Origin: Ostreococcus lucimarinus | Taxonomy: Eukaryota | Direction: 5' to 3' (one strand) | DNA length: 64,000 bases | Assembly (NCBI GenBank): GCA_000092065.1 | Contig: CP000583.1 | In this document: piece after piece, positions 1 to 22,859 of the stretch | How the letters are laid out: every line of letters begins with the position of its first letter | Numbering within the stretch: position 1 is the stretch's first letter | Made by a program: the position numbers and the translations under genes | The notes under the pieces: generated by a model | What the model was told of the DNA's origin: nothing | The model's database searches: none | What the model saw: the letters and a program-made list of their open reading frames with translations, nothing else

Positions 1-2475
1 GACTCTCCGATACTTAAACAGCGTCAACGTCTTCCGGCGTGGGCAAAGCAACAAGAACTCATCGACGCCGTCGAGCGCAACCAAGTGCTCATCGTCGCCG
101 GCGAAACGGGTTGTGGTAAGACTACACAGCTGCCGCAGTTCATTCTTGATAACGCTATCTGGCAAGGACGTGGAGCGATGACAAACATGATTTGCACACA
201 GCCGCGTCGAATCAGCGCCACGAGCGTGGCGAGTCGCGTGGCGAGTGAGCGAGGTGAACAAATTGGCAAAACAGTGGGCTATAAAATCCGTCTTGAAGGC
301 TCGATGAGCTCGAGCACGCGAATTTTGTTTTGCACCACGGGCGTGTTACTGCGTCGTTTAACCGAAGACCCTTTACTGAGCGGTACGAGTCACGTGATAG
401 TCGACGAAGTCCACGAGCGCTCGCTCGATTCTGATTTCTTACTCGTCTTGTTGCGCGATATTTTGCCGCATCGACCGACACTCAAAGTGGTGCTGATGTC
501 AGCCACGTTGAATGCGCTCGCGTTTGAAGACTATTTCAAGGGCGTTTCTGCGGTGAGCAAAATCCCTGGGTTCACTTATCCGGTGAACGAGCATTATCTC
601 GAGGACATCTTACAAGTGACCGAGTATCAACCAAACCCAGGGACGGAGTATTTTAAAAAGGCGCCGCGACGCAGGGACAACTTTGACGCCTCTAGTCGAC
701 CGGTGTCAAGTAAGGATGGCGACATACCGGATGAAGACTCGTTCAACATTACGTTGCGGGACAAGGGCTACGGTGACAACGTCGTTCGCGCTCTCCGAAA
801 CCTCGAACAGGGTTTGATCAATTACGAGTTGATGACGCTTTTAATCTCGCACATTTGCGAGTCGATGGACGAAGGCGCAATACTGGTATTTATGCCCGGT
901 TTGGCGGAGATCACGAAGCTTTACGAGGCGTGTGGGGCGAATCCTACGATCAACGCGGCAACGTCTGGAGGAAAATACCTGATTGCTTTGCACAGCACGC
1001 TGAGCACGGCCGAGCAGAGCATCGTATTCGATCACGCCCCAGACAGCGTGCGTAAGATAGTCATCGCAACAAATATCGCAGAGACGTCGATCACGATCGA
1101 CGATGTCGTGTACGTAGTCGACAGTGGCAAGTGCAAAGAAAACGGCTACGATCCAAACACTCGAATGCAGCTGCTTCTCGAGCAGTGGGTGTCTCGTGCG
1201 AGCGCTCGACAGCGTCGCGGTCGCGCGGGACGCGTGCAAGCCGGCCGATGCTTCCGAATGTACACGCGTCACGTGCACGATACGGTCTTCGCTGAACACA
1301 CGCTTCCTGAAATCAGACGCGTGCCTCTAGAAGGCTTGTGCTTGCAGATTCAGCTACAACGCATGGCTGGGGGCATCGCCGGATTTCTCGGCAAGGCGTT
1401 GGAGCCTCCGAAGGTTGAGTCTGTGGAGGCGGCGGTGGCGTCTCTCAAACGCCTTGGTGCTTTGGATGAGCGTGAATGCCTGACCCCACTCGGTCAACAC
1501 TTGGCTACGTTACCCGTGGATGTTCGCGTGGGTAAGATGCTCCTCTACGGCTCCATGCTTGGGTGCCTGGATCCCGTGCTCACGATTGCTGCCGTCTTGA
1601 GCGGTCGTTCGCCGTTTGTGGCGCCGCTCGACAAACGCGACGAAGCAGATCTCGCCAAAAAGCTCTTCGCCGAAGATCAATCGGATCATCTCACGATTCT
1701 GAATGCCTATAATGGCTGGCAAGATGCGAAGAAGCAAGGACGATCGTCTGAGTTCGCGTTCACCCGCGAAAACTTTCTCTCGTGGAGAGCACTCGAGGGC
1801 ATCGCAGATCTGCGGAACCAATTTACACAACTTCTGAATGAATCAGGTTTCCTGGGATCGTCGTCGAAGAAGAAAGGTGGTGGACGGTATCGCGGTCGCC
1901 AGCGCGGTAATGTCTTGGAAACCGACGTAGATTGGATTCGAGCGAATCGAAACTCGGAGAATAAACGACTGTTAAAGTCGGTTCTCGTGGCTGGGTTGTA
2001 TCCAAACCTCATCAAAGTCGACCCCGGTTCTCGTCCAGATGCCCCACCCCGTCTGTCTTTCCTCGCCGAGAACGGGCGGACGGAAAAAATCCAAATTCAT
2101 CCATCGAGCATCAACTTCGAGGCGAAGAAGTTTATCACCAAGTGGCTGGTGTACCACGAGCGCGTGCAGACGACGGCAATCTTCGTGCGCGATTGCACGG
2201 CGGTGACGCCTTATCAACTTCTATTGTTCGGGGGGAAAATCGAAGTGCAACACACGCAAGGAACGATAAGTATCGATCGCTGGGCGACGTTCCAAGCTCC
2301 AGCAAAAGTAGGAGTTTTGCTCAAAGAGATCCGAAACCAGCTTGACCGCGTGCTGGCGCAAAAAATTGAAAACGTCGGCAAGGACGTCGGCGAACTTTCC
2401 AACCCTCTCGTGCTCACGATTCTCGAGCTTCTCGATTCGGAGAAGATCGCGAAGATGTCCACAAAACCAAATTAG
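1..2475 (+). CDS. DEAH-box ATP-dependent RNA helicase (DHX36/DHX57-like); 5' end lies upstream of the window
   Basis: The reading frame is open from nt 1 (…LPAWAKQQELIDAVERNQVLIVAGETGCGKTTQ). Motifs GETGCGKTT (Walker A), DEVHERS (DEAH), SATLN, TNIAETSITI and QRRGRAGR are present. A long HA2/OB-type C-terminal region follows, with stop TAG at 2473-2475. Confidence 0.9.
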   Translation, partial: DSPILKQRQRLPAWAKQQELIDAVERNQVLIVAGETGCGKTTQLPQFILDNAIWQGRGAMTNMICTQPRRISATSVASRVASERGEQIGKTVGYKIRLEGSMSSSTRILFCTTGVLLRRLTEDPLLSGTSHVIVDEVHERSLDSDFLLVLLRDILPHRPTLKVVLMSATLNALAFEDYFKGVSAVSKIPGFTYPVNEHYLEDILQVTEYQPNPGTEYFKKAPRRRDNFDASSRPVSSKDGDIPDEDSFNITLRDKGYGDNVVRALRNLEQGLINYELMTLLISHICESMDEGAILVFMPGLAEITKLYEACGANPTINAATSGGKYLIALHSTLSTAEQSIVFDHAPDSVRKIVIATNIAETSITIDDVVYVVDSGKCKENGYDPNTRMQLLLEQWVSRASARQRRGRAGRVQAGRCFRMYTRHVHDTVFAEHTLPEIRRVPLEGLCLQIQLQRMAGGIAGFLGKALEPPKVESVEAAVASLKRLGALDERECLTPLGQHLATLPVDVRVGKMLLYGSMLGCLDPVLTIAAVLSGRSPFVAPLDKRDEADLAKKLFAEDQSDHLTILNAYNGWQDAKKQGRSSEFAFTRENFLSWRALEGIADLRNQFTQLLNESGFLGSSSKKKGGGRYRGRQRGNVLETDVDWIRANRNSENKRLLKSVLVAGLYPNLIKVDPGSRPDAPPRLSFLAENGRTEKIQIHPSSINFEAKKFITKWLVYHERVQTTAIFVRDCTAVTPYQLLLFGGKIEVQHTQGTISIDRWATFQAPAKVGVLLKEIRNQLDRVLAQKIENVGKDVGELSNPLVLTILELLDSEKIAKMSTKPN

Positions 2476-2530
2476 CAGACAAACACATTGATTGAATTGA
2501 TACAACACACTATACATAGTAATCTAGTCC

Positions 2531-3244
2531 CTATGACCAACTTCTCGTCTTCGCGTGCACGCGAGCCACATCCGTCATGTAATCCCCGCTCAATCGAGCG
2601 TACGCCGTGCGATTCGCGCGCTCGATCTCTCGTCGAGCGCGCTCCTCGTCACCATTAATCTCATAAAATAACCCCAAATATAACGCGCTATAAAACTCAT
2701 CGCTCGCGTTCGAGCGTCCGGCTTCGCGCAGGCGCGTCGCCGCCTCTTCCGATCCCTCCGCGAACAGCGCGAAAACGCTCGACATCACCGGTCTCGAATC
2801 CCGACCGGTGATCAACATATTTTCTCTCGCGTACGCGATCCCTTTCTCCGGATCCATCGCCTCCGAGGCGAAGCACCACACGCTCTCCTCCGTATCGTTC
2901 GGGTTCTGCGCCACGTCCAGTCGAAACTGCTTCGCCGCCTCCTCGTACGCCCCCGCGTAGTACAGCGCCAGCCCGCGCTGCCACATGTACGCGCTAAACC
3001 TCTCATCGCTCGCGATGGCGTCGTCGAACGCGTCGATCGCGCCTCTGACGTCGCCTCTGATAAACTCCCTCGCGCCGCGCTTGATCTTTTCGCTCGCCAC
3101 CGATGCGTTCGCTCGCTCCGCGCGCGCGCACGTCGCCACGATCGCCGCCGCGACGCCGCGCAGAGCGTCGCGACGATTCGTTCGTCGTCTCGCGTCGCGC
3201 GTCGCGCACGCACGCGGCGCGCGCGCGCCGCGAGCGGCGGACAT
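2531..3244 (-). CDS. Small TPR-repeat protein with an Arg/Ala-rich N-terminal presequence (possibly organelle-targeted)
   Basis: A 237-aa ORF has a true ATG at 3244. It contains TPR-like helical repeats (YMWQRGLALYYAGAYEEAAKQF…, FYSALYLGLFYEINGDEERARREIERA). Convergent AT-rich 3' ends with the helicase gene. Confidence 0.55.
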   Translation of the reverse strand: MSAARGARAPRACATRDARRRTNRRDALRGVAAAIVATCARAERANASVASEKIKRGAREFIRGDVRGAIDAFDDAIASDERFSAYMWQRGLALYYAGAYEEAAKQFRLDVAQNPNDTEESVWCFASEAMDPEKGIAYARENMLITGRDSRPVMSSVFALFAEGSEEAATRLREAGRSNASDEFYSALYLGLFYEINGDEERARREIERANRTAYARLSGDYMTDVARVHAKTRSWS

Positions 3245-9515: not shown

Positions 9516-12500
9516 CTAAATCGTTTCACCCGTGGCCTTCTCGTATTGCGTCTTGAGAGCGACGACGAGACGCCAATCATCCTTCGTCAATTCTTCACGG
9601 AAGCTTTCCTTCAACATGTCGATCGACTCGCGCGTCATTCTCGATACGAGCTGATCTTTATGATCAAAATGGCGACCGTAAAGTCGCGAAGATTCACTGG
9701 GCGTTCTCGGTTCGATCTTCATCGCCACAGATTGACCGGCAGTTGCCTTCTTCACCTCCTTGTGGTTGAGTTCCATCGAAGCAATCTTACCAATGTCGAT
9801 GTAACCTTGCGATGGGATGCAAATTTGCGTCCCCACGCGAGCGACCCCCTTGACAATGTCAACACCAACGACGATGGGATCGCGCTTGTTGAACACGCAG
9901 TTGGGCATGATTTGCAAGATGCAAGGGAAGTTGACGTGCTGCGACGCGGCTTCACGCTTGTCTGCCTTGACCTTTTCCATGTACGCCGTGAATTGATCAA
10001 ACAAGTGGTAGATGATGTCGGCGGTGAAGATGCGAACGTTGAGCTCTTCGCCCATTGCGTGCGCCTCCTTCGTCACCGGCACGTCAAAAGCCAGAATAGT
10101 AGCATACTCGGGCTTTTTGCGCTCGTGCATGACGCTCGCACCCATGACGTCCCGTTTGTTTACCGGGCCAATGGCGATGCCGGCGACGGGAATTTTGACC
10201 GCGTCAGATTTCAAGAACTCCAACAAGGCTTCCAAAGAACCGAGCGTAGACGCCTGCACGTACACGCCTTCGCCACTCTTATCAACACGAGCAAGCACGC
10301 CCTTCATATCACTTAAAACCTCTTCCCTGAGTTCCATTTCGTCGTCTTCAGGATCGAGCACCAAAAGAGACGTACCTGCGACAGCTTTCTCTAATCCAGT
10401 GGCGACGATCTTGATCCCTTGAGCGCCTTCGATTTCCTTGTGATGAATGTAGCTTCCCTTCACCCGCATCTCTCGCATGGGCTGCGGTGTAAGTAATGCA
10501 CGAATTTGAGTCGTAATCGCCCCCTCTAACCCAGCAACGACGATTGTCTGTCCTTCCTTGAGCTTACCGTTGATGAGAATGACGTCAACGCTCGTACCGA
10601 GACCTTCGATCATCTTCACTTCAAGCACGGTACACTGTACGGCAGGCACGTATTGAATGCGCTCGTTCATGCGATTTTGGCACAAGTCAACAAGCGTTTG
10701 CAAAATGTCCGGCATCCCCTCACCCGTAATAGCAGAGGTTGGGATGATGTTGATGAAAGTACGTGGGTCCGGGTTCTCCCAGTACTTCGCCACGTTCAAA
10801 CCTTGCTCAGCAAACTCGATGACGATCTTGTCGTAACGATCTTGGAACTCGCGTCGAGCGTGATCCTTTTGTAAGGACAAAGTCTCCTGTGTTGGGAAGT
10901 TGGTATTTTCCGTCCAGTCGTACATGCGATCGATTTTGTTGAGCGCAATCACAAAAGGCGTCTTTCGCGATCGAAGCATGTTCAACGATTCTATCGTTTG
11001 CGGCTCTAAGCCGTGCATGATATCAACGACGAGAATGGCGAGATCACAAAGTGACGAACCTCTCGAACGCAAGTTTGTGAAAGACTCGTGTCCTGGGGTA
11101 TCGATAACGAGCAAACCGGGAACTCGCAAGTCCCATTCACCCTTGTTTAGCTGCGCCGTTCGCTCGAGGAGAGACTCCTTGGGAATAAAAGTCGCACCAA
11201 TTTGCTGCGTAATACCGCCAGCTTCTCCGTCTTGGACGTTGGTTCGTCGAATGTTATCCAATATCTTCGTCTTACCGGTATCAACGTGCCCCATGATGCA
11301 TATAATTGGGCAACGAAGCTTGCTTGGACTGCGCTTTGCCTTGGCCAACTCGAAGCGTGCCAAACGCGCAATCTTTGCCGCCTCCATGCGCTCTTCGTGT
11401 TCACGTTGACGGACGTCATCGCTATCCTCGCGGTAATCCGAGCTATCGGAGTACTCAGAGCTGTCGCTGTCGGAATCAGAGTCAGAATCAGAGCCAGAAT
11501 CAGAGCCAGATCCTTCGTCAGATTCTTCGTCAGAGCCCGAAGCGTCAGCAGCTTCCTTGGCTGCGGCGGCCTTTTCCTTGGCTTCCTTGGCCCACGGCTT
11601 TTCAGCCGCAATCTTCGCCTTGATCGCCTTCTCCGCCGCGAATTTGGCCGCAGCCTCAGCCGCTTTCTTCTCCGTCTCGTGACGTTTCTGCTCGGCGGCC
11701 TCTTTCTCCGCCTTTTCCTTAGCCAAGCGCTCCTCCTCTTCTTTCTGACCCGGAAGGATAATCTCCTTGTCGTCCCAGTCTTCCGCTTCCCAGTCATCGG
11801 CAGCGTCGTCATCTTCAGCTTCGGCGGCGAGTCGGGCTTCTTCTTCAGCTTTAGCCTTCGCTTCAGCCTCAGCACGCTCTTGTTGTTGCTTTCGACGCTC
11901 TTCCATCTCTTTCTTCTTTTTGCGATCGTCGTAAACCGGACGTTTCGGCTTGATAACTTCGTCGAGTTTATCTGCGTCAATCCCAGACTTGGCTAACATT
12001 TGCTGGCGCATCGCGGCTAAACGCGCTTGTTCCGCCTTTTGCTTGTTGCTGAGAAGTTTGCCTTCGGCACGGAGGCGCTCCTTCTTCTCCTTCTCTTTTT
12101 GTTTCTTTGCCTCGCGACGCGCTTCCTCCTCTTCTTCTTTTTGTTTCTCAAGACGTTCAGCCTCCTCCGCCGCGGCTCTTGCCTCGGCTTCAGCTTTGGC
12201 TTGAGCCTCTTCCACCTCCTTACGCTTTTGCATTTCTGCTTGAAGGGCGAGAATTCTCGCACTTGGCGCGCCGGCAGACTTTTGCTTCTTCTCCGCCTCT
12301 GCCGCCGCCTTGGCCTTGGCTTCCTTTTCTTTTTGCTTCTTCTTGAGCTTCTTCTTTTGCGACGCCGAAAGCTCTTTGCCATCTTCAAGCGCATCGCCGT
12401 CATCATCATCATCATGATTATTGCCATCGGTAGCAGGCGCCGCATCGGCGGCATCACCGCCAGCTGCGGCTTCCGCGGCTTCGCGCTCGGCTTTCAATCG

Positions 12501-13778
12501 GCGCTTCTTTGCCGCTTTACTCTCGCCAGCCGGCTCTTCTGGCTTGGCCTCGATTTTGATGTCAAGCTCGGCCAAAAGAGCGTCGAGGTCTTCCTCGTCG
12601 TCGGCCGCTTGCTTACCACCTTTTTTCTTTTTCTTCTTGTCCTTCTTCGAGCCACCAGTTTCGTTGGCGACGAGTTCGGGTTCGGGTTCGGGTTCGGGTT
12701 CGGGCGTCTTTTCCTTCTTCGTCGTCCCGGGCGCTTTCAAAGGCACATCATCGCCGATGGAAAAAGCAGACTTATCGAGCTCGTACACGCCATCCGCGCT
12801 ATCGGCCCAACCCATCTCCACCGCGCTGAGAATCATACCTTCACTCATGACGCCGCGCAACGGCGTCTTGTCGATGACTTGGCCGCTGGCGGGGATTTTC
12901 ACGCCGACGCCTGCAAAAATCACCAACAAACCTTTTCTGGCGTTGGCACCACCGCACACGCACCGTTTCGGTTCGTCGCCGCCGAAATCGACGGTGCAAA
13001 CTTGCAGACGATCCGCCATCGGGTGCTTGCTGCATTCGATGATCTTACCCACGACGAGTTCGGGTTCGGCGACGAGCTTTTTCTTTTTCTTCTTTTTGAG
13101 ATCAATCGCGACTTCCACCGCCGCGGCTTCCTCGTCGGCATCCATGAGATCGGCAAAGCTTCCCTTCTTCTTCTTCTTTTTGTCTTTCGTGTCCGCGGTG
13201 CGAGACTCCGAGGCTTCTTCGTCGTCCTCCGCGTCCTCGTCTTCGTCGTCCGCCATCAAAGCCGCGAAGCCGCCCTTTTTGGATTTCTTCTTTTTATCCT
13301 TCTTCGGCTTGACATCCGCCTCCATCTCCTCTTCCTCGTCGTCATCATCGCCACCACCCATCAACGGATCGTTCACGTCGTCGTCCGACCCCATCAACGC
13401 CGCGAAACCACCTTTTTTGGATTTCTTCTTCTCCTTCTTCGGCTTCGTCGCCGCCGCCGCCGCGCGCACCTCCTCCTCCGACGCGTCGTCCGCGTCATCC
13501 GCGTCGTCATCCGACCCCATCAACGCCGCGAAACCTCCCTTTTTAGACGTTTTCTTCCCCTTCCTCGGTTTCACCGCGCGCGTCTCCCCCTCGTCCGCCT
13601 CCTCTTCGTCCGCCTTCTTCGCCGCCGCCGCCAGAGGGTCCAAATCCTCGTCCGAGTCCTCCCCTCGTCCTCTCCCGCCCCGCCCGCCCTTGCCCTTCGC
13701 CGCCTTTCGCGCCTTTTTCATCTCCGTCTTCGACATCGCTCTCGCGCCGTCGTCCGCGTCTTTCGCGCCGTCGTCGCG

Positions 13779-13816
<38 letters not shown>

Positions 13817-13898
13817 CCGAGGGATCGACCCCGTCGTCGTCGTCGCTCGAATCGTCCCCTCGCTTGCCCTTGCGCCCGGCTCGCTTGCCCTTCGCCAT
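9516..13898 (-). CDS. Eukaryotic translation initiation factor 5B (eIF5B) with a Myf/EMAP-II-type tRNA-binding domain embedded in its charged N-terminal region
   Basis: The C-terminal GTPase region has GHVDTGKT, DTPGH and NKID. The long K/E/D-rich N-terminal region is typical of eIF5B (start MAKGKRAGRKGKRGDD, ATG 13898). The same ORF contains an OB-fold tRNA-binding domain (…VVGKIIECSKHPMADRLQVCTVDFGG…RGVMSEGMIL…) at about 12725-13075. The ORF-track extension to 14456 is an R/A-rich artefact. Confidence 0.85.
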
Positions 13899-14034
13899 CG
13901 CGCGGCGCGCGGGAACGTTCTCTCTCGCGCGCCGTCCGTCGTCGGCGCGCGCTCGCGCGTCGCGCGCGCGTCGCGGTGTGTCCATCGCGCCGTCGCATCT
14001 TTTAAACGTCGAGACATCGCGACGCGCGCGCGCG

Positions 14035-14496
14035 ATGCGCGCCGACGCGCGCGCGCTCGGCGGCGACGACGACGCGCGCGACGTCGCGCGCGACGTCGAC
14101 GACGGCGACGCGACGCGCGCGATGGCCGACGCCGACGCCGACGCCGACGACGCGCGCGAGGACGCGACGACGACGACGACGACGACGCCGCCGACGAACG
14201 AACGACGCGACGCGCGCGAGCGCGCCGGCGACGTCGCGCGCGCGTCGCTCGCGATCGCGCTGCTCGCGGTCGCCCTCGCGAGGCTGCGACGGTGGGCGAG
14301 GGGCGACGGCGACGCGCGCGGCGGCGCGCCGGGACGCGTCAGCAGGCGCTTCGCCGCGCGGCACAGGAAGTGTAATCGATGCGGCGCGCGCGGGTCGGCG
14401 GTCAAGGTGAAGTGCGAGCGGTGTAAAAGGTGCTGGTACTGCTCGCAGACGTGCAAGAAAGCGGCGTGGGCGCTGGAAATTTGCGAGTGTTGTTGA
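14035..14496 (+). CDS. Small MYND-type zinc-finger protein (about 153 aa), divergent from eIF5B
   Basis: The C-terminus CNRCGARGSAVKVKCERCKRCWYCSQTCKKAAWALEICEC fits the MYND Cys spacing, though the conserved His is not obvious. ATG at 14035. The upstream part of ORF 12421-14496 is antisense to eIF5B and low-complexity, so it is rejected. Confidence 0.4.
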   Translation: MRADARALGGDDDARDVARDVDDGDATRAMADADADADDAREDATTTTTTTPPTNERRDARERAGDVARASLAIALLAVALARLRRWARGDGDARGGAPGRVSRRFAARHRKCNRCGARGSAVKVKCERCKRCWYCSQTCKKAAWALEICECC

Positions 14497-15473: not shown

Positions 15474-18191
15474 ATGTCGACGCGCGCGAAATCGATCGCC
15501 GCGGCGACGCTCGGCGTCGTTTTCGTCGCGCTGTGCGCTGTGCGCGCTGATGGATTCGCAATCGAGCCGCGGTGCGTCGACGACGCGCGACGCTACGACG
15601 ACGTCACGCGACGCGCGCTGACGACGCGGGCGACGTGCGCGGACATCGCGCGCGGCGCGGAGGCGCTCGAAGCGCTCGGAGCGTCGACGTGCGGTGCGGT
15701 GGGCGCGCGCGCGCGATTTCTGGCGGCGAAGCTCAACGCGGCGACGGGCGCGTGGGACGACGCGAAGCGCGCGCTCGCGGGCGACGAGACGAGCGAATTA
15801 TGGAAAACAATAGATGAGATGTCGCGCGCGGCGCGGGTGGGGTCGGAGGCGGGAAGACGAGGGGATTGGGTGAAGGCGTACGCGGCGGCGAACGCGGCGG
15901 TTGAGGCGAGCGCGTGCGCTTTGGATCCGAGGACGTTTCAAGCGCGCGCGCGCGCGGCGTTGAAGTTGGCGATGCACGGAAGGGCGTTCGTGGATGCGAA
16001 ACGCGCGCTCGCGCTGGGGGGGGGGAAGTCAGAGGCGTACGAGACGATGGCGACGGCGTTGAGCGAGTTGGCGGATTCCGCCGAGCGGTTAGCCGACGCC
16101 GAGACGCTGGCGCGGCGTTGTTTGCGGTACAGCCCGGACAACGTCGAGTGTTTGGTAGTTAGAAAAAATATTAGGCGAGCGCTGTTGGTTTGGCGCGAAG
16201 CGAGCGATGCGGAATCGCTCGGGGATTGGAGTTCGGCGATCGACGCTCTGAGGGAGCTGCGAAACGCGACGCGCGGCGGCGCGTTTGAGGCGTTGAAATT
16301 CGACGCGCTCGTCGCGTCGTGTCGCGTGAATGGTAAACGAGAACGCGCGCGTTGGGAGACCAGCACGACGAGAAAGAGGGTTCCCGCCAAACTCGTCGCG
16401 GATGCGATCGATCAGTGCACAGACGCGTTGTCCGAGCTCATGTCGCGCTGCGGCGAAAGTCGCGTCGACGACGTCCCGAATTCGTATTACGCTCGCGCGT
16501 GGATGCGCGCGCTGAGCGCGAACGTAGATGGTGCGATGGCCGACGTAGCGGGGATTGAACGTTCGGTAGATGTATCGTCCGACGATTGGAAGGCGAACGT
16601 TGAGGCGTTGCGAAAAGCCATCGAAGAGGCGCGCGAAGCAAACGCTCCAAAGGATTTATACGCGATTCTGGGATTGACGCGCGAAGATGCACAAGCGGAA
16701 GATTGGCTTCGTGTTTTGAAACGTGCGTACAGAAAGCTGGCACTACTATTACATCCCGATAAAAATCCGGCGGTCGATAAAGAGGAGGCGGAGGAGAAAT
16801 TCGATGAACTCGTCAAGGCGTACAAGATTCTGTCAAGCGAGACGCTTCGTCGCGAATACGACGAGACCGGCAAGGTGAACTTGGGCGTTGACGCGCAAGC
16901 GACGAACGACTGGTTCGACAGTCACGCCGATAGCCGTCGCACGAATGACGGTCAACCGCCAAACGATGGACTTAACGAGGATGATTACATCTTCCGGTTT
17001 GATAAGCGCGACGCCGGGGCGGATGGCCGAGCGGCTGGTCAGTACGTGCACAAAGAAACGGGCGAACGGGTATTCGGTGAACGCGACGTGCGCCCAGAAG
17101 AAGATCAACAGGACGACGTCTGTGCGAAGAAAAAAGGATACTGCATCGCCGGACGAGGCGGCGCCGAGGCTCCGTCGCGCGCCAAGCACGTTCCGGGGGT
17201 CGAATCGCTCGAGGTGAAAATCGTTACGCCGAATCTGCTCCCGGGAGATACCGTGGCGGCGAGGCTCGTTCGAAACATCTTTGGACTTCACAAGCTTGAG
17301 TTCATCTTTGCTTTTGACGTCGAGTTACCGAGCGAAGAAGTTCGCGACAAGACTTTTCAAGACGCAGCGAAAACGCGTTTGAGAAGACTCGTGCGTACCC
17401 TGCACGCGTCCCTCGTCGGCCGCGACGGGGCGTCGACGCTCACGAGCATGATTGAAGAGCACATCGTGAGTTCGTCGTCTTCAGAAGACGATTCGATCGT
17501 AGACTACGTGGCATCCGCGATGAGCGGTCGCGCACCACGCGTCGGATCGCCTCACGAGACGCGGGATCTTCTGGATCGCTTTGCGTCGCGCGCCACGCGC
17601 GAGATGAGACGGCTCGGCGCCTTGGGACTCAATTCCGACGATCGCACCGATAATTTCGTGCGCGTCGCGCGTGACTTGATGTTCAACCCCTTGGTATCGT
17701 CTCACTTGCTCTCATTCACCGCCGACGACGCCGAAGACGCCTCACAGGTTCGAAGTCTCGTCGCCCTCTGGCGCGACGACGTCCCCAGCCGCGTCCTCGT
17801 CGACGGCGACGTCCTCTCCTACGAAATCAAATTCGTCGATTCCGACAAGTCTCCCGACGCCGTGCGAGCGATGTGCGCCACCTTAGACTTCGAAACCACC
17901 GCGGGCGACCGCCTCAGCGCCTTCCCCGACGCCATCGATCAATTCGGCCTCGCCGCCGCCGTCGCCGCCGTCAATTTCCGCGACGTCCTCGCGCGAGACG
18001 CCGTAAACGGTTGGATCTCGCGTCGCATCCCCATCCCTTCCGGCCTCATCGGCGCGCGCGTTTCGTCCTGGTTCATCGTCGCCGCCCGCATCGACGCCGG
18101 TCGCGCGTCCACGCGCGTCCGCGAGGTCAAAATCATCAACGCCTTCGCGGACGCCGACGACTTCGCCATCCTCGAGCCGCGCGGACCCTGA
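15474..18191 (+). CDS. DNAJC3/p58IPK-like J-protein (signal peptide, TPR-like region, J domain) with about 450-aa C-terminal extension
   Basis: Signal peptide MSTRAKSIAAATLGVVFVALCAVRA is present. The J domain DLYAILGLTREDAQ…YRKLALLLHPDKN…KFDELVKAYKILS is present. TPR-like repeats precede it. ATG at 15474. Confidence 0.75.
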   Translation: MSTRAKSIAAATLGVVFVALCAVRADGFAIEPRCVDDARRYDDVTRRALTTRATCADIARGAEALEALGASTCGAVGARARFLAAKLNAATGAWDDAKRALAGDETSELWKTIDEMSRAARVGSEAGRRGDWVKAYAAANAAVEASACALDPRTFQARARAALKLAMHGRAFVDAKRALALGGGKSEAYETMATALSELADSAERLADAETLARRCLRYSPDNVECLVVRKNIRRALLVWREASDAESLGDWSSAIDALRELRNATRGGAFEALKFDALVASCRVNGKRERARWETSTTRKRVPAKLVADAIDQCTDALSELMSRCGESRVDDVPNSYYARAWMRALSANVDGAMADVAGIERSVDVSSDDWKANVEALRKAIEEAREANAPKDLYAILGLTREDAQAEDWLRVLKRAYRKLALLLHPDKNPAVDKEEAEEKFDELVKAYKILSSETLRREYDETGKVNLGVDAQATNDWFDSHADSRRTNDGQPPNDGLNEDDYIFRFDKRDAGADGRAAGQYVHKETGERVFGERDVRPEEDQQDDVCAKKKGYCIAGRGGAEAPSRAKHVPGVESLEVKIVTPNLLPGDTVAARLVRNIFGLHKLEFIFAFDVELPSEEVRDKTFQDAAKTRLRRLVRTLHASLVGRDGASTLTSMIEEHIVSSSSSEDDSIVDYVASAMSGRAPRVGSPHETRDLLDRFASRATREMRRLGALGLNSDDRTDNFVRVARDLMFNPLVSSHLLSFTADDAEDASQVRSLVALWRDDVPSRVLVDGDVLSYEIKFVDSDKSPDAVRAMCATLDFETTAGDRLSAFPDAIDQFGLAAAVAAVNFRDVLARDAVNGWISRRIPIPSGLIGARVSSWFIVAARIDAGRASTRVREVKIINAFADADDFAILEPRGP

Positions 18192-18273: not shown

Positions 18274-19095
18274 ATGCACGTCGCCCTCGCGAACCTCGCG
18301 CTGTGCCCGCGCGCGCGCGCGTCGTCCGTCGTCGCGCGCGACGTCGCGAGCGGTAGGTCAACTTTCGCGGGCGTCCCCGTCGTCGTCGCGCGCGCCGCGC
18401 GCGCGCCGAGCGCCCCGCGCGCGCGCGGGATGACGCCCGTCACCGCGCGGTTCGGCGGACGCGGCGGACGCGGCGGCGGCGGACGCTCGTTCGGTGGACG
18501 TGGACGCGGCGGGGGCGGGCGCGGGCGAGGCGGACGCGGACGAGGTCGCGGACGACCGCAGATGGACCGAGGACCGATGCGAAACGAAGACATCGAGTTC
18601 GATGAATTGCGGGTGCTGGACGAGGATAAAGAGATGCTCGGGGTGATGTCCACGGACGAGGCGCTGGAACTCGCGGCGGAGAAGGAATTGGATTTGGTGG
18701 TCATGAGCCCGGACGCGGAGCCGCCGTTGGCGCGAATCATGAATTACTCAAAGTACAAGTACGAAAAGGAAAAGAAGGATCGGGAGGCGAGGAAGAAGGC
18801 GGCGGCGGTGCGCGTGGACATCAAAGAATTGAAAATGAGGTACAACATCGATACGCACGATTACGGGGTGCGACTGAGGGCGGCGCAAAAGTTTTTGGAG
18901 GGCGGGGACAAGGTTAAGGTGATTTGTCAGTTTCGCGGGCGCGAGAACGACTTCCGGGAGATTGGGCGGGAGATGTTCGCTCGATTCGTAGAGGACGTTG
19001 GCGAGGTGGGCTCGCTCGAGAGCAAGCCTAGCATGGAAGGGAACTCGATGACGATGTTACTCGCACCCACGGTCGCCAAGGGCGACAGCAAGTAA
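18274..19095 (+). CDS. Bacterial-type translation initiation factor IF-3 (organellar), with presequence and RGG-rich linker
   Basis: IF3 N- and C-domains are present (…NEDIEFDELRVLDEDKEMLGVMST…LDLVVMSPDAEPPLARIMNYSKYKYE…VKVICQFRGRE…). GGRGGRGG repeats lie upstream. ATG at 18274. Confidence 0.8.
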   Translation: MHVALANLALCPRARASSVVARDVASGRSTFAGVPVVVARAARAPSAPRARGMTPVTARFGGRGGRGGGGRSFGGRGRGGGGRGRGGRGRGRGRPQMDRGPMRNEDIEFDELRVLDEDKEMLGVMSTDEALELAAEKELDLVVMSPDAEPPLARIMNYSKYKYEKEKKDREARKKAAAVRVDIKELKMRYNIDTHDYGVRLRAAQKFLEGGDKVKVICQFRGRENDFREIGREMFARFVEDVGEVGSLESKPSMEGNSMTMLLAPTVAKGDSK

Positions 19096-19214: not shown

Positions 19215-22200
19215 TCACGCATTCGCGATGCGTTTTGGCGGCAGACCGCTCGGAAACGCCTGTTCTCCTTCGCCCGGGAGCACCGCTTCGGCGAACATTT
19301 CGACTTGCAACTTTGCGTTACTCAGCACGGCTTGCGTGATGTGTCTACAGGGTCGATGTTCTCGCGTGATGCCCGCATCGGAGAAAAATCTGTCCCAGAT
19401 ATCACACACCGCTTCCATTTCTCGGATGTCTTTGAGGTGAATTTTCACTTGCAGCAAGTGAGCGACGTCAGTGCCGGCCATCACGAGGAGTCTGACCAAA
19501 TTATCAAACACACGGCGCATTTGTCCCGTGAACGTGGGTTCGACCACACCGCCACAAGTAATACCAGAAAGCCACACTTGTCGTCCCCAGGTGACAACTG
19601 GAGAGCAATCCAAGCCACCAGGATTGTGGTACACGACCTGCGTGTTTGCGTCTGGCGCGTGCAACGCCAGCGCTCCACGCCCGGCGCCACGACGACGATC
19701 GCCACCTTGTGACGTACCGCTTTCTAACACCGCAATTCGATCCTCGTACTGAACGTTCGTTCGCGTTGCGATTTCATGCGAGCGCGCAAGCTCTTCGTGC
19801 GAGCGCACGAGTTCTTTGTGCGCTGCAGAAAGTTCTTTGAACGAGTTTACGAGTTGCTGGAAATTTTTCACCTCGACGATTTCGTTACCCGGTAACGCGT
19901 CGTCCAGCTCACGCGTCATTCTCTTCACTGGAACCAAGGCATGCGTTTCATCCTCCGCAGTAACGCTCGCAGCTCGAGATCTCTTACGTCTGCTCGGCGG
20001 CTCAACGGGGATGGGAATCGTCTTGTGCTTCATCCTCATGTGCGTGCACAAACCCCTATGTTGCTTCGCTTTGAACTCGCACTCTGGACATTGGAGTTGG
20101 TCCGTTAAAATTTCCATGTGTTTGGTACTAGAATGGACTCCCTTGTCGTGGACTACCGTCTCATCCACTTCCTCCATGTCAGTCTGATTGAGTGCCACCC
20201 GATCTTCGATGACGGCTGCCGCCGCAATCAGTTCAACGTTGTGTTCTTTCTTGTAGTGCGTGCAAAGCTGTCTGAACGACTTGCATTTGAAATCTCCAGC
20301 CGCACACTCGTCGCAAAACCGAACGCCAGGATCCATCTCTTTCGTGCGAGGAGGTCCCGGGAAACTAACTCCGACGTTCAGGGGCTCTTCTTCGAGTGGT
20401 GAGGTTTGGGGGTGCTTCAACTTGCAGCTGCGCAGATGAGCTGCAAACCCTGCATTCCAGAAACCCGTGTACGTCTGACAGTACTCGCACGTTATCTGCG
20501 TCTTTTTCGATTTACCACTCGGACGATCGGTATCTCTCGTCTCATGTGTGAGCTTATTCGGTTTTGACAACGAAGGTTTCGGCTCTGAAGTTGGCAACGA
20601 CGCATCACTCGACGAGTTCATCAACGCCTCCGCCTCTTTAAACTCTTTCGCGGTAATGAATGCCCGTACATTGTGCGCGTCTTTGTAGTGAGCGATCAGC
20701 CCTGAATTGTTTGGAAACTTGGCCGAGCACTCTGCACAACTTCTTTGCGTGTGAAAGATGCGTAAGATTGTCGTTTCTGTTTGCGGTCGAACGGACTGTT
20801 CTTCGACGGCAGGCTCGTCGCCGGGTGACTCTCCTTGTGCAGACTGTTTACCAATTCGCGTGACTTTAACGCCGTGTTCCACCTGCATGTGTCGCACTAA
20901 ATCATCGAAAGAAGTACCTTTGAACTCGCAACCGCTTTCTTCTCGAAGTAAACATTTTCTACTCTTCGCGCCGACGGATAGCTCTTTGAGCGGCGTGTGA
21001 GCTTCAGACGCAATTTTTGGAGGCGCCTTATCTGTTGCCTTCGTGACCACTTGGGCATTAGGGACGCTCGTAGCGGCTGATTTCGCTCCTTTGCACCATC
21101 GCGCTTTGTGCGTCACGAGCCCGGCTGGCGACTTAACTGAAACTCCACACACATCGCAAGCCGTCGAATGATTGGTGACGATGACAGACGCTTGCGTTTT
21201 GTTTTTCTTCTCTACCGCACCAGCGGTCAAAGGCACGATTAGTTCGCCGCGATGCTTCATCTTGCTCTGATGTATTTTTAGCGAGTGCGCATTCTTGAAC
21301 GACTTTCCACACTCAGTGCACGCACATTCCTGCGACTCGTTCGTAGACTTGTCGATGTCACGACCTCTGCTCGCTGCTCGCTCGTCTTCGTCGTCGATAC
21401 CTACGGTGTAACGCGAAGGTCTCGCGGCTGTTCGCCGCTTTCGATTGGGTTCAGTAGACTCGTTCGCAGTCAGCTTGTCGTCAACATTCGATACGTCGTC
21501 AAAAAGATTTTCAGGTGTCTTGAGAAGCGCAGCCTTGTTCGCTGGTCGATCATCATCGCTGTCTGCGTTGTGCGTAGCCTCTGCTTCAGCACGATGCTTC
21601 ACTGTATCGCTTCTCGGCCCATCGTCGTCGGCGTCGCTGTCGCGATCCGTCTCATCCTTGTCGTTCTCGTCCTCCATCACGAATGCGCTCACCATCTCGG
21701 CTTGGTCCATGGCGGGTTGCTCGGCCCAATACTTTTCGACGTGCTGCTGATACTCGGCGAAAGTCTCTTCGGGCTTGGCGCTGCAGTAACTCACGACGTG
21801 TTTCTTGAACGCGAGGTATCCGTTAAACTTTTTCTGCGCGCCGCAAAAGCAACACTCGATATCCTTGTAGATCTTGTACTCTCTGTTACCGTCCGGGCTC
21901 ATCTGGTCGACCCCGCGCGGCGTCGGCACTTCAACATCTATCGTCGTCGGACTCGAAACCGCGAGCGCTGGTGCCGGCGTGCGCGCCGGCGCCTCGTTCG
22001 CGACTTCGCCGTCCTTCGTCGTCTTGTCGCTATTCGGACTTCCATTCGCGCCCTGCCCCGGGCTCCGCGCCGGCGTCGCCGTCTGCACCTCGTTCCCATC
22101 ACCCGCGCCCGCGTCCACTTTCCCATCGCTCACCACCGCCGCGACCTCGCTCGCGGGCGGTTGACCCGGTAAACCTCCCTCCGCCGACATCGCGCCGTCG

Positions 22201-22289
22201 CGTCGACCTCCGCGCTCGCCTTCGCCGTCCTCCCCGCGTCGATTCGACCGTCTCGATCGAGTCCTGCGCGCGTCCGCGTCGTCAGTCAT
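19215..22289 (-). CDS. Multi-C2H2 zinc-finger protein with C-terminal RidA/YjgF (UK114-like) domain
   Basis: At least 7 C2H2-like fingers are present (e.g. CTECGKSFKNAHSLKIHQSKMKH, CAECSAKFPNNSGLIAHYKDAHN, CPECEFKAKQHRGLCTHMRMKH). The C-terminal 140 aa align to the RidA/YjgF family (…WLSGITCGG…TGQMRRVFDNL…TDVAHLLQVKIHLKDIREMEAVCDIWDRFF…PCRHITQAVLSNAKLQVEMFAEAV). There is no internal Met before the RidA part. Start chosen at MTDDADA (about 22289); upstream is low complexity. Confidence 0.65.
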   Translation of the reverse strand: MTDDADARRTRSRRSNRRGEDGEGERGGRRDGAMSAEGGLPGQPPASEVAAVVSDGKVDAGAGDGNEVQTATPARSPGQGANGSPNSDKTTKDGEVANEAPARTPAPALAVSSPTTIDVEVPTPRGVDQMSPDGNREYKIYKDIECCFCGAQKKFNGYLAFKKHVVSYCSAKPEETFAEYQQHVEKYWAEQPAMDQAEMVSAFVMEDENDKDETDRDSDADDDGPRSDTVKHRAEAEATHNADSDDDRPANKAALLKTPENLFDDVSNVDDKLTANESTEPNRKRRTAARPSRYTVGIDDEDERAASRGRDIDKSTNESQECACTECGKSFKNAHSLKIHQSKMKHRGELIVPLTAGAVEKKNKTQASVIVTNHSTACDVCGVSVKSPAGLVTHKARWCKGAKSAATSVPNAQVVTKATDKAPPKIASEAHTPLKELSVGAKSRKCLLREESGCEFKGTSFDDLVRHMQVEHGVKVTRIGKQSAQGESPGDEPAVEEQSVRPQTETTILRIFHTQRSCAECSAKFPNNSGLIAHYKDAHNVRAFITAKEFKEAEALMNSSSDASLPTSEPKPSLSKPNKLTHETRDTDRPSGKSKKTQITCEYCQTYTGFWNAGFAAHLRSCKLKHPQTSPLEEEPLNVGVSFPGPPRTKEMDPGVRFCDECAAGDFKCKSFRQLCTHYKKEHNVELIAAAAVIEDRVALNQTDMEEVDETVVHDKGVHSSTKHMEILTDQLQCPECEFKAKQHRGLCTHMRMKHKTIPIPVEPPSRRKRSRAASVTAEDETHALVPVKRMTRELDDALPGNEIVEVKNFQQLVNSFKELSAAHKELVRSHEELARSHEIATRTNVQYEDRIAVLESGTSQGGDRRRGAGRGALALHAPDANTQVVYHNPGGLDCSPVVTWGRQVWLSGITCGGVVEPTFTGQMRRVFDNLVRLLVMAGTDVAHLLQVKIHLKDIREMEAVCDIWDRFFSDAGITREHRPCRHITQAVLSNAKLQVEMFAEAVLPGEGEQAFPSGLPPKRIANA

Positions 22290-22859
22290 CCCATCGCGCG
22301 CGCGTTCCGTCGTTCCGACCCGCGCGCGCCGCGCGCCGCGCGCGTCGACCGCTCGCGCGGGTCGAAATTCTCCAATTTCAACCTCCGACCGATTCCCCGC
22401 GGTGTTCCGCGCGTCGCCGTCGCGCGCCCGACCGTCGCGCGCCCCCTCGCCCGCGCGCGATCGCCCGCGCGCGATCGCCCGCGCGCGTCCGCCCGCGCGC
22501 GCGGCGCGTCTCGCGCGCGCGCGACCGCGCGAGCGCTCGACGACGCGCATTTGACCTCGCGACCGCGGCGACCGCGCGCGCCGATGCGCCGCGCGCGCGC
22601 GCGCGAGATCGATGCGTCGCGCTCGCGCGCGCGAAGACGTCGGTCGTGATCCGTACCTCGCGTTGGATTCGCTCGCGGGGCGCGCGCGCGCGTCGAGGAG
22701 TGCGCATTGGGCGCGCATTCGATGCGGAGACGACGAGACGCCGCGAGGCGTCGCGCGAAGCGTCGCGCGAGGGCGAACGCGCGCGACGCGGCGACGACGA
22801 GAGGGAACGACGCGTCTGGACGACGCGGCGCTGATGATGATGCGTGACTAGTGAGAAAT

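Follow-up and report, generated by a model that had tools for sequence, protein, structure and literature searches.

Introduction

Proteins of the Rid family (YjgF/YER057c/UK114) have been described as small free enzymes that clear reactive imines. According to the 2015 family survey (PMC4433059), Rid proteins are typically trimers with pockets between the subunits, activity is lost without Arg105, which holds the substrate carboxylate, and Glu120 and Tyr17 are proposed helpers whose replacement with alanine had little effect. Among the subfamilies, Rid1-3 retain both the Arg and the Glu, Rid4-7 are without the Arg, and the Tyr is variable in Rid2; the Arg is replaced in the subfamilies without deaminase function (PMC4433059). 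Rid1-7 occur "primarily in bacteria" according to that survey and "only in prokaryotes" according to another study (PMC5619798), which is also the source for PSPTO_0102 and PA5083 as experimentally characterised Rid2 members, and in the passages of the survey consulted here Rid fusions appear only as tandem arrays of Rid domains. Here we report the analysis of a 64,000-nucleotide stretch of Ostreococcus lucimarinus DNA (contig CP000583.1 of assembly GCA_000092065.1; hereafter the window), in which one gene on the minus strand, at 19215-22190, encodes a 991-residue protein with eight Cys/His fingers, a predicted coiled coil and, at its C-terminus, a Rid-family domain most similar to Rid2.

Among the functions that we considered for this protein, we rank first, at even chances, a trimeric, probably nuclear zinc-finger protein with a metabolite pocket, in which sensing and trimerisation are combined.

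Results

A single gene encodes the zinc fingers and the Rid domain

In the list of open reading frames (ORFs), the coding sequence (CDS) of the zinc-finger/Rid gene is uninterrupted and ends in a single stop codon at 19215-19217. An exact-sequence cluster look-up revealed it to be identical to XP_001417056.1 / UniProt A4RV11 of O. lucimarinus CCE9901, which carries the database labels "predicted protein" and "C2H2-type domain-containing protein", the JGI automatic label for members of the cluster being "enamine deaminase RidA". The preliminary description of this DNA, made from its letters alone, had proposed that a multi-zinc-finger region and a Rid-family domain are fused in this one ORF, and the proposal was upheld by the uninterrupted frame, by the orthologues, and by matches to hidden Markov models (HMMs) and to known structures.

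An annotation artefact, in which two adjacent genes, an unrecognised intron or an internal start would give a separate small Rid protein, was weighed against these data. Many metagenome gene calls of about 230-234 aa do start at M758, and on one low-GC contig the orthologue is split by an in-frame TAA. In every Ostreococcus-type orthologue, however, the finger and Rid parts lie on the same strand and in the same frame, uninterrupted by a stop codon, and the split gene is continuous (1646 aa, P0282) in other samples. As to the earlier statement that neither a Met nor a stop separates the fingers from the domain, the stop is indeed missing but a Met is not: a single Met, M758, intervenes ahead of the coil on the way from finger 8 to the Rid domain, and it is unconserved, the next one (M891) being already inside the domain. 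The short calls from M758 were made by prokaryote-style callers on metagenome contigs and are apparently artefacts of the calling. Furthermore, a 447-aa partial ORF derived from an MMETSP transcriptome (P0087) spans a finger-5-like finger, the coil and the Rid domain, and provides RNA-level support for the fusion from a relative. The artefact explanation is therefore scarcely credible, and the fusion of zinc fingers, coil and Rid domain in a single gene is regarded as confirmed. Two further considerations were set aside, namely the Logan contig of P0001 as transcript evidence, which was rejected as genomic because flanking genes are present on the same contig, and a hidden intron in the linker between the coil and the Rid domain, which was dismissed as a threat since both flanks share one frame and an in-frame intron would leave the fusion intact.

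The C-terminal domain has a Rid fold closest to Rid2

The Rid domain comprises about 123 residues (aa 850-972; 19275-19643, minus strand), as delimited with Pfam, PDB matches, AlphaFold2 (AF2), Foldseek and HHalign. The last 140 or so residues, which had previously been assigned to it as a whole, do hold the Rid fold but end in a 19-residue tail, and a 49-residue coil ahead of the fold had been overlooked. The HMM check that had been asked for on this region gave a match to PF01042 (Ribonuc_L-PSP, Endoribonuclease L-PSP) at 46 bits (E=6.4e-12; cutoff 27.3), in which positions 12-120 of the profile, out of 121, were aligned; the relatives scored 39-61 bits. A 216-aa construct consisting of the coil and the Rid domain (aa 776-991), modelled by AF2 with a 16-sequence family alignment, had a mean predicted local distance difference test score (pLDDT) of 81.8, exceeding 90 across most of the Rid domain. 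Foldseek returned 166 PDB matches at E<=0.001, and the best 50 of the 166 were all Rid-family chains, with the chorismate-mutase-like alpha/beta fold; the best matches, to PSPTO_0102 (9bk1), PA5083 (9bjv/9bjy), NMB1025, A6V7T0 and 3gtz, had template modelling (TM) scores of 0.84-0.88, root-mean-square deviations (rmsd) of 2.2-2.4 Å and identities of 22-30%.

The domain had been named RidA in the preliminary description, an identity that could not be maintained, since the canonical RidA model TIGR00004 scored 30-33 bits against a cutoff of 106.25. The best PDB sequence match was PSPTO_0102, whether a single sequence or an Ostreococcus profile was used, with PA5083 close behind, although the direct margin over RidA chains was small (40.7 vs 38.5 bits). 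In an exhaustive profile search the nearest stand-alone relatives were mostly of 115-122 residues, and the profile built from such relatives scored 140-154 bits to Rid2 structures vs 75-108 for RidA, 31-42 for Rid3 and 48 for YjgH. HHalign of the fused family against the Rid2-like stand-alone group gave a probability of 99.9% (E=7e-35, 119 columns), the sole notable indel being a family-specific 5-residue insertion before the Arg strand. Because of these results, from the TIGR00004 failure to the HHalign score, the domain is placed closest to the Rid2/YoaB type and not to canonical RidA; the Rid2-like label used here is one of similarity scores, the subfamilies being formally defined by the NCBI CDD cd00448 sub-hierarchy. 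A bacterial origin of the domain is a plausible hypothesis. A word-indexed search with the Rid domain alone yielded 18 candidates and 1 match, a sparse return that we attribute to the domain being too divergent for the word index, and the same type of search with the family profile returned short fragments only.

Residues of the putative active site

In the family alignment, whose 16 members show domain identities of 26-45% to the window sequence apart from one orthologue at 93%, the equivalent of RidA/TdcF Arg105 was present in 15 of the 16 and that of Glu120 in all. In the window protein these are Arg949 (codon 19344-19346, minus strand), aligned with the Arg of the Rid2 P-A-R motif, and Glu964 (codon 19299-19301, minus strand), in an invariant V-E that corresponds to V-E-I in Rid2-like proteins. 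By the HMMER pairwise register to TdcF, the Arg105 equivalent would be the first Arg of R-P-C-R; this was rejected in favour of the second Arg, which the closer Rid2 and profile-profile alignments select and which hardly varies, whereas the first is Leu or Gly in several relatives. The site that motif reading equates with RidA Tyr17 is taken by Cys862 (codon 19605-19607, minus strand), where most relatives have Tyr or Phe (G-Y-S-P), and that of Cys107, a correspondence partly of our own reading, by Ile951. Of the conserved Arg, Glu and Cys whose retention had been left to be checked, the first two were thus found and the Cys was not. The alignment and the model together showed that the predicted ligand-contacting Arg and Glu are kept and that the Rid fold, as modelled, is intact; as far as residues can tell, the domain carries both the Arg105 and the Glu120 equivalents of the deaminase-competent group (RidA and Rid1-3). 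Further constraints on the domain are suggested by residues that are invariant specifically in this family, namely the FGR Arg and, as numbered in the 216-aa construct, His136 and Phe161. The D-I-R Arg is likewise invariant in the family, and it is also common to many Rid2-like stand-alone proteins.

The retention of the Arg and the Glu bears on the possibility that the domain is mainly an enzyme, that is, a working Rid2-type imine/enamine deaminase that the fingers merely position at chromatin or in a ribonucleoprotein (RNP), and no sensor. Every tested Arg-bearing Rid1-3 protein, including PSPTO_0102 and PA5083, deaminated imines in vitro (PMC5619798), which is in good agreement with such a role. 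Chromatin, however, is not known to offer any obvious supply of free imino acids, the task could be done just as well by a soluble enzyme standing alone, and the family-specific 5-residue insertion together with the invariant residues (FGR Arg, His136) suggests altered specificity or contacts. A targeted enzyme is accordingly considered rather unlikely.

A heptad helix precedes the Rid domain

An amphipathic heptad helix of 49 residues (aa 776-824; 19719-19865, minus strand) was recognised from the AF2 models and its heptad register, with F F H H H N I at the a positions and L L L L A Y L at the d positions. It was predicted as a single helix at residues 2-49 of the construct, with block-mean pLDDT of 91-94 for residues 1-40 and 74 for residues 41-50. 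The helix terminates in RIAVLE, which fits the R-h-x-x-h-E trimerisation motif, a motif whose effect is context-dependent (PMC3653964), and a RIAVLE-type motif is kept in three orthologues. The linker from the coil to the Rid domain (aa 825-849; 19644-19718, minus strand; pLDDT <50) is variable in length and sequence, and it is in frame and stop-free in all orthologues. The C-terminal tail of 19 residues (aa 973-991; 19218-19274, minus strand) shows a G-E-G-E...P-x-G-x-P-P pattern with invariant E, A, G, P and P; the pattern is conserved in the Ostreococcus clade, and the pLDDT is low at the extreme end.

Within the coil, H791, H798 and H805 (19776-19820, minus strand) occupy consecutive heptad a positions of the core. 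This trio (A-H...S-H...R-x-H) is invariant in the five orthologues of the alignment of the window protein with its orthologues (A1, six sequences), which was used throughout for invariant columns, and is not conserved in low-GC and high-GC relatives. In a trimer the three residues would stack as three His3 layers, forming a possible metal site or pH switch.

The Rid domain could also serve as a trimerisation scaffold only, with a ligand-free pocket in which the Arg and the Glu are kept for folding or for the interface. Each of the 16 aligned members has a coiled coil ahead of the domain, the Tyr17 position varies within Ostreococcus, and tandem 3x-Rid fusions use the fold as a covalent trimer unit (PMC4433059), all of which would suit a scaffold. 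On the other hand, Rid4-7 lose the Arg yet keep the fold and the trimer (PMC4433059), so that the Arg is not needed for structure, and it is nevertheless kept here across deep divergence in all but one of the aligned sequences. We therefore hold a pure scaffold to be rather unlikely as well and return to the sensing and trimerising protein that we rank first after the conservation and the finger region have been described.

Conservation of the fusion across genera

A word-indexed search recovered four other clusters, of 89%, 39%, 39% and 35% identity and 963-991 aa, each with a finger match and PF01042 and each colinear with the window protein from the first Met to the last residue; the exhaustive profile search added a full-length P0079 (948 aa, 540 bits). 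On three of the orthologue contigs (89%, one 39% and 35%) the Rid end faces the 3' end of an IF3 gene, tail-to-tail, and a DnaJ gene comes next where the contigs reach far enough. The fourth contig ends at the target gene and has its upstream CH-domain gene in common with the window. Since they share these neighbours, the genes are considered positional orthologues.

In the exhaustive profile search, the C-terminal approximately 130 residues of a set of long proteins scored 89-102 bits vs about 40-50 for stand-alone Rid proteins. By Pfam, these long relatives (911-1646 aa) carry C2H2-type fingers, in some cases with WRC domains, and a C-terminal PF01042; they include P0090 (1076 aa), P0094 (911 aa), P0095 (1305 aa), P0097 (1371 aa), P0100 (1002 aa) and P0282 (1646 aa), with WRC (PF08879) present in P0095, P0097 and P0282 and just under threshold in P0090. 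The IF3 gene adjoins the Rid end on every contig that reaches far enough, including those of relatives with 44.5% GC and 72.9% GC, so that the pairing is kept across genera. These two contigs apparently represent Bathycoccus-like and Micromonas-like genomes, respectively, on account of their GC contents and, for the 44.5% GC contig, of a neighbouring GT29 glycosyltransferase gene, a family that is expanded in Bathycoccus (PMC3491373). The presence of IF3 beside the Rid end on both of them indicates that the gene position is kept beyond Ostreococcus.

Between genera, the coil and Rid module alone is strongly conserved, and the finger region matches weakly, finger by finger. Compared with the 89% orthologue, the ratio of nonsynonymous to synonymous rates (dN/dS) of the gene was 0.49 at a dS of 0.12, a fast rate of evolution that seems elevated for a conserved protein-coding gene, and the lowest dN values in the gene were those of the coil (0.024) and the Rid domain (0.028). 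These data show that the fusion is under purifying selection and that the coil and Rid module, its best-conserved part across genera, is the evolutionary core of the protein.

Several individual family members deserve comment. The in-frame TAA in the low-GC orthologue lies at about 3019-3024 of its contig (L006), in a GAA/TCA acidic repeat with the frame continuing on both sides, and may reflect erroneous sequencing, polymorphism or a genuine nonsense allele. MDA9097634.1, deposited as "Rid family hydrolase [bacterium]", belongs to the P0100 cluster as a 1002-aa member of the zinc-finger-Rid family and very probably stems from a picoeukaryote contig mis-binned into a bacterial metagenome-assembled genome (MAG). 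P0116 (366 aa) has the coil and Rid module at its N-terminus, with Pro replacing the Arg, and an unrelated C-terminal half. P0295 (324 aa) combines a ClpP protease with part of a Rid domain and could be a fusion created by the gene caller.

The zinc-finger region

A pattern scan identified eight Cys/His fingers in the 991-aa protein, with metal ligands that are invariant for fingers 1 and 4-8, and mostly conserved for fingers 2 and 3, in orthologues of 38-42% identity. In Pfam, zf-C2H2 (PF00096) reached a whole-protein score of 25.2 bits, equal to its cutoff of 25.2, and zf-met 22.6 bits against 21.2, and several matches to other finger models fell below their own thresholds. Fingers 2, 5 and 8 fit C-x2-4-C-x12-H-x3-5-H exactly, and the remaining fingers are C2HC or spacing variants. 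The full-length AF2 model (mean pLDDT 45), which was used to view the folded fingers and the long helix and not for the fold search, placed most fingers at about 70-85 and one long helix ahead of the Rid domain. The fingers lie 30-170 residues apart within low-confidence disordered linkers, with no short conserved linkers joining adjacent fingers and no canonical TGEKP spacers; they are single modules and form no tandem array. Thus, the zinc fingers noted in the preliminary description are real, but its term "nucleic-acid-binding" is an assumption, as they are widely spaced single modules rather than a tandem DNA-reading array.

The individual features, all encoded on the minus strand, are as follows from the N-terminus. 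The Pro/Ser/Thr-rich N-terminus (aa 1-112), with several SP/TP sites invariant in orthologues, includes a conserved linear motif, VPTPRGVDQMSPDGN (aa 88-102; 21885-21929), whose columns are mostly invariant in A1. Finger 1, a C2HC finger of the form C-x2-C-x14-H-x4-C (aa 113-136; 21783-21854; pLDDT about 70-79), has four invariant ligands. The acidic linker between fingers 1 and 2 (aa 141-285; 21336-21770) showed a dN/dS of about 1.3 against the 89% orthologue, at a dS of merely 0.064, and contains a basic patch, NRKRRTAARPSRY (aa 249-261; 21408-21446), in which the R/K/P/Y columns are invariant and which is a candidate nuclear localisation signal. Finger 2 (aa 289-313; 21252-21326), of the classical C2H2 type, is the sole Pfam zf-C2H2 match and has its ligands partly conserved in distant orthologues. 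Finger 3, C-x2-C-x12-H-x4-C (aa 345-366; 21093-21158), gave the weak zf-met match, with three invariant Cys and the His in five of the six aligned sequences. Finger 4, C-x7-C-x12-H-x4-H (aa 413-439; 20874-20954), with all four ligands invariant, was modelled as beta-beta-alpha at a pLDDT of about 55-73. Finger 5, C-x2-C-x12-H-x4-H (aa 485-506; 20673-20738), was found by the pattern scan and in A1 and has the most inter-genus matches, A1 profile positions of about 454-527 matching P0087, P0094 and P0095. Finger 6, C-x2-C-x13-H-x3-C(-x3-H) (aa 568-593; 20412-20489), likewise found by the scan and in A1, is DUF7501-like. Finger 7, C-x2-C-x15-H-x4-H (aa 626-650; 20241-20315), has invariant ligands and a pLDDT of about 74-85, and finger 8, C-x2-C-x12-H-x4-H (aa 701-722; 20025-20090), has weak Zn_SUZ12 and zf-H2C2_5 matches and a pLDDT of about 81-85. 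It is followed by a second basic patch, PPSRRKRSRAAS (aa 731-742), and an ALVPVKR motif (aa 751-757), together at 19920-20000, both recognised from invariant columns of A1 and only putatively functional.

The finger-6 type also occurs in a paralogue, XP_001416846.1 (P0246, 1279 aa), which is encoded on the same 983-kb chromosome record outside the window and has 14 tandem C-x2-C-x13-H-x3-C motifs and a Pfam DUF7501 match of 94 bits.

The finger matches raise the further possibility of an RNA-directed protein with zf-met/JAZ-like fingers that bind double-stranded RNA (dsRNA), in which the Rid domain would act as an L-PSP/HRSP12 "ribonuclease" or as an adaptor. Weak matches to zf-met, zf-C2H2_jaz and zf-Di19 in the O. 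lucimarinus protein and its relatives point in this direction, as do the PDB relatives that include chains named ribonuclease YabJ or UK114. Nevertheless, the finger matches score close to their thresholds or under them, RNase activity has been claimed for canonical RidA members whereas the domain here is Rid2-like, and the relatives carry WRC domains, which have been described in plant DNA-binding GRF proteins. We therefore consider an RNA-directed function very unlikely. In the O. lucimarinus protein itself, a Pfam search gave no WRC (PF08879) match even at E<=1.

Start codon and upstream region

The maximal minus-strand ORF around the gene extends without interruption over 19215-22718. The conserved start is the ATG at 22190 (MSAEGG...), the equivalent Met being used by all orthologues and by the NCBI model. 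The in-frame extension upstream of it (22191-22718, minus strand), Arg-rich and GC-rich, is without a counterpart in the 89%, 39% and 35% orthologues and is included solely by prokaryote-style gene calls (P0001, 1111 aa); it is probably non-coding, as 5' untranslated region (UTR) or intergenic sequence. The start previously placed at 22289 has accordingly been moved to 22190, as 22191-22289 belongs to this extension, which is missing in divergent orthologues. Tandem repeats of 14 and 28 bp (TCGCCCGCGCGCGA) are situated 5' of the conserved start at 22423-22501, inside the Arg-rich extension. The GC content of the window is 60.6%.

Discussion

Proposed function

The function that we rank first can be outlined as follows. 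One nuclear-type gene gives rise to a long, largely disordered protein with eight separate fingers, a coiled coil and a Rid2-type domain at its end. The C-terminal module most likely trimerises, since Rid proteins assemble as homotrimers with three pockets at their interfaces, a heptad helix leads into the domain and the helix carries an R-h-x-x-h-E motif; the coil and Rid module would in this way bring 24 fingers together in one trimer. The Arg949/Glu964 pocket most likely binds, and perhaps hydrolyses, a small 2-imino, 2-oxo or amino acid, and would link that metabolite to the target of the finger region. The finger region, in turn, probably acts in the nucleus on nucleic acid or chromatin, as suggested by the basic patches and by the WRC domains in relatives. 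The two functions suggested in the preliminary description, a metabolite-sensing transcription factor and an RNA-associated role of the Rid fold, would both be compatible with the data.

Several observations weigh against this outline. The trimer is predicted from the helix and the family habit, and the R-h-x-x-h-E motif is missing from the coil of several more distant relatives. The Rid pocket may have been conserved for structural reasons only, and the Tyr17 equivalent appears to be a Cys in O. lucimarinus. With most fingers below Pfam thresholds and the wide, TGEKP-free spacing described above, binding to DNA or RNA is assumed, and protein contacts are possible instead. The case for a nuclear localisation consists only of the basic patches and of WRC domains, which are absent from the Ostreococcus protein itself. 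Finally, the overall dN/dS and that of the acidic linker imply that much of the protein is weakly constrained.

A more specific version of the sensing and trimerising protein would have a Rid2-type domain captured, probably from bacteria, in an ancestor of the Mamiellales and now serving as the ligand-gated trimerisation head of a zinc-finger protein that binds chromatin or DNA, so that a 2-oxo or 2-imino acid, reflecting amino-acid or nitrogen status, controls a nuclear regulator. Taken as a whole, this version is distinctly unlikely. If the ligand-gated interpretation were true, there would be no earlier case of a Rid fold that acts as sensor in a eukaryotic transcription-type factor, nor of a Rid2 member with a demonstrated function in a eukaryote.

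Irrespective of the exact function, a Rid2-like domain is here built permanently into a large eukaryotic zinc-finger protein, a design that several genera of ecologically dominant marine picoalgae have retained. It offers a concrete case for a non-housekeeping role of a Rid domain, whether as sensor, targeted enzyme or oligomerisation head, and the green lineage may here provide an instance of a domain captured from bacteria, although only modest practical benefit is to be expected until a ligand or target has been identified. The view that the architecture is undescribed has held: literature searches on Rid fusions with zinc fingers, on Rid2 structures, and on Ostreococcus or Micromonas with RidA or C2H2 returned neither a zinc-finger-Rid architecture nor a eukaryotic Rid2-type domain. 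What is new is an undescribed, lineage-wide combination of a known fold with known finger types, in a sequence that is already public under automatic labels.

Neighbouring genes and other features of the window

The IF3 gene of the window (18274-19095, plus strand) encodes IF3_N and IF3_C with an RGG-rich N-terminal extension; its counterparts elsewhere were located at L004 4258-4776, L005 9096-9614, L006 4369-5574 and L007 about 1900-2700 (minus strand). That Rid proteins used to be mislabelled as "translation initiation inhibitors" is probably coincidental here. A neighbouring ORF (15474-18191) matches XP_001416761.1, a J-domain protein from O. lucimarinus CCE9901, exactly; together with the database cluster of the zinc-finger/Rid protein, this match identifies the window as nuclear DNA of the picoalga.

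Farther away, an ORF of 1646 aa at 9516-14456 (minus strand) has a tRNA_bind domain (PF01588) in its N-terminal part, together with an entire IF-2/eIF5B-type GTPase (GTP_EFTU, D2, IF-2 and D4), a combination repeated on the related contig L005. The region shows a strong strand composition skew (AT skew of -0.44 at 12-14 kb), and CG-rich tandem repeats are present at 13376-14254.

Comparison with known systems

The best sequence and structure matches to the window Rid domain are the Rid2 proteins PSPTO_0102 (9bk1) and PA5083 (9bjv), with TM 0.84-0.86, rmsd 2.3-2.4 and 27-30% identity. Common to both sides are the N-terminal I-x-R strand, the AGTD, DIR/DI, W-D-x-[WF], P-x-R and V-E motifs, and the catalytic Arg and Glu. 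Whereas Rid2 proteins are stand-alone proteins of about 115 residues, reported as prokaryotic (PMC5619798; PMC4433059), the domain here ends a eukaryotic protein of 991 aa, and it differs from them in its preceding coiled coil, in the 5-residue insertion before the Arg strand and in the 19-residue tail. With canonical RidA, TdcF, UK114 and HRSP12, the window domain shares the fold, the Pfam family and the equivalents of Arg105 and Glu120, and the G-Y-S-P motif of its relatives resembles the G-P-Y-S of RidA. Unlike RidA, it is without Cys107 (Ile951), has a Cys in place of Tyr17 and is not a free small protein. The 3x-RidA tandem fusions, such as EF_0115, likewise hold Rid domains in a larger polypeptide and exploit the trimer principle, but they join Rid domains to each other and are found in bacteria (PMC4433059), whereas a single Rid domain is joined here to zinc fingers and a coil; several three-domain Rid proteins were among the weaker matches of the exhaustive profile search.

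On the finger side, the closest counterparts are the widely spaced C2H2/C2HC finger proteins of Mamiellales, including XP_001416846.1, which have the same finger types and the same acidic and low-complexity linkers. They differ in that this paralogue is without a Rid domain, and the zinc-finger/Rid protein of O. lucimarinus is in turn set apart from its orthologues in other genera by the WRC domains that the latter possess. As a functional analogy only, the Rid-family protein YabJ of Bacillus (1qd9) is linked to gene regulation by its name, "purine regulatory protein"; unlike the window protein, YabJ is a free canonical RidA-type protein that is not joined to a nucleic-acid-binding region.

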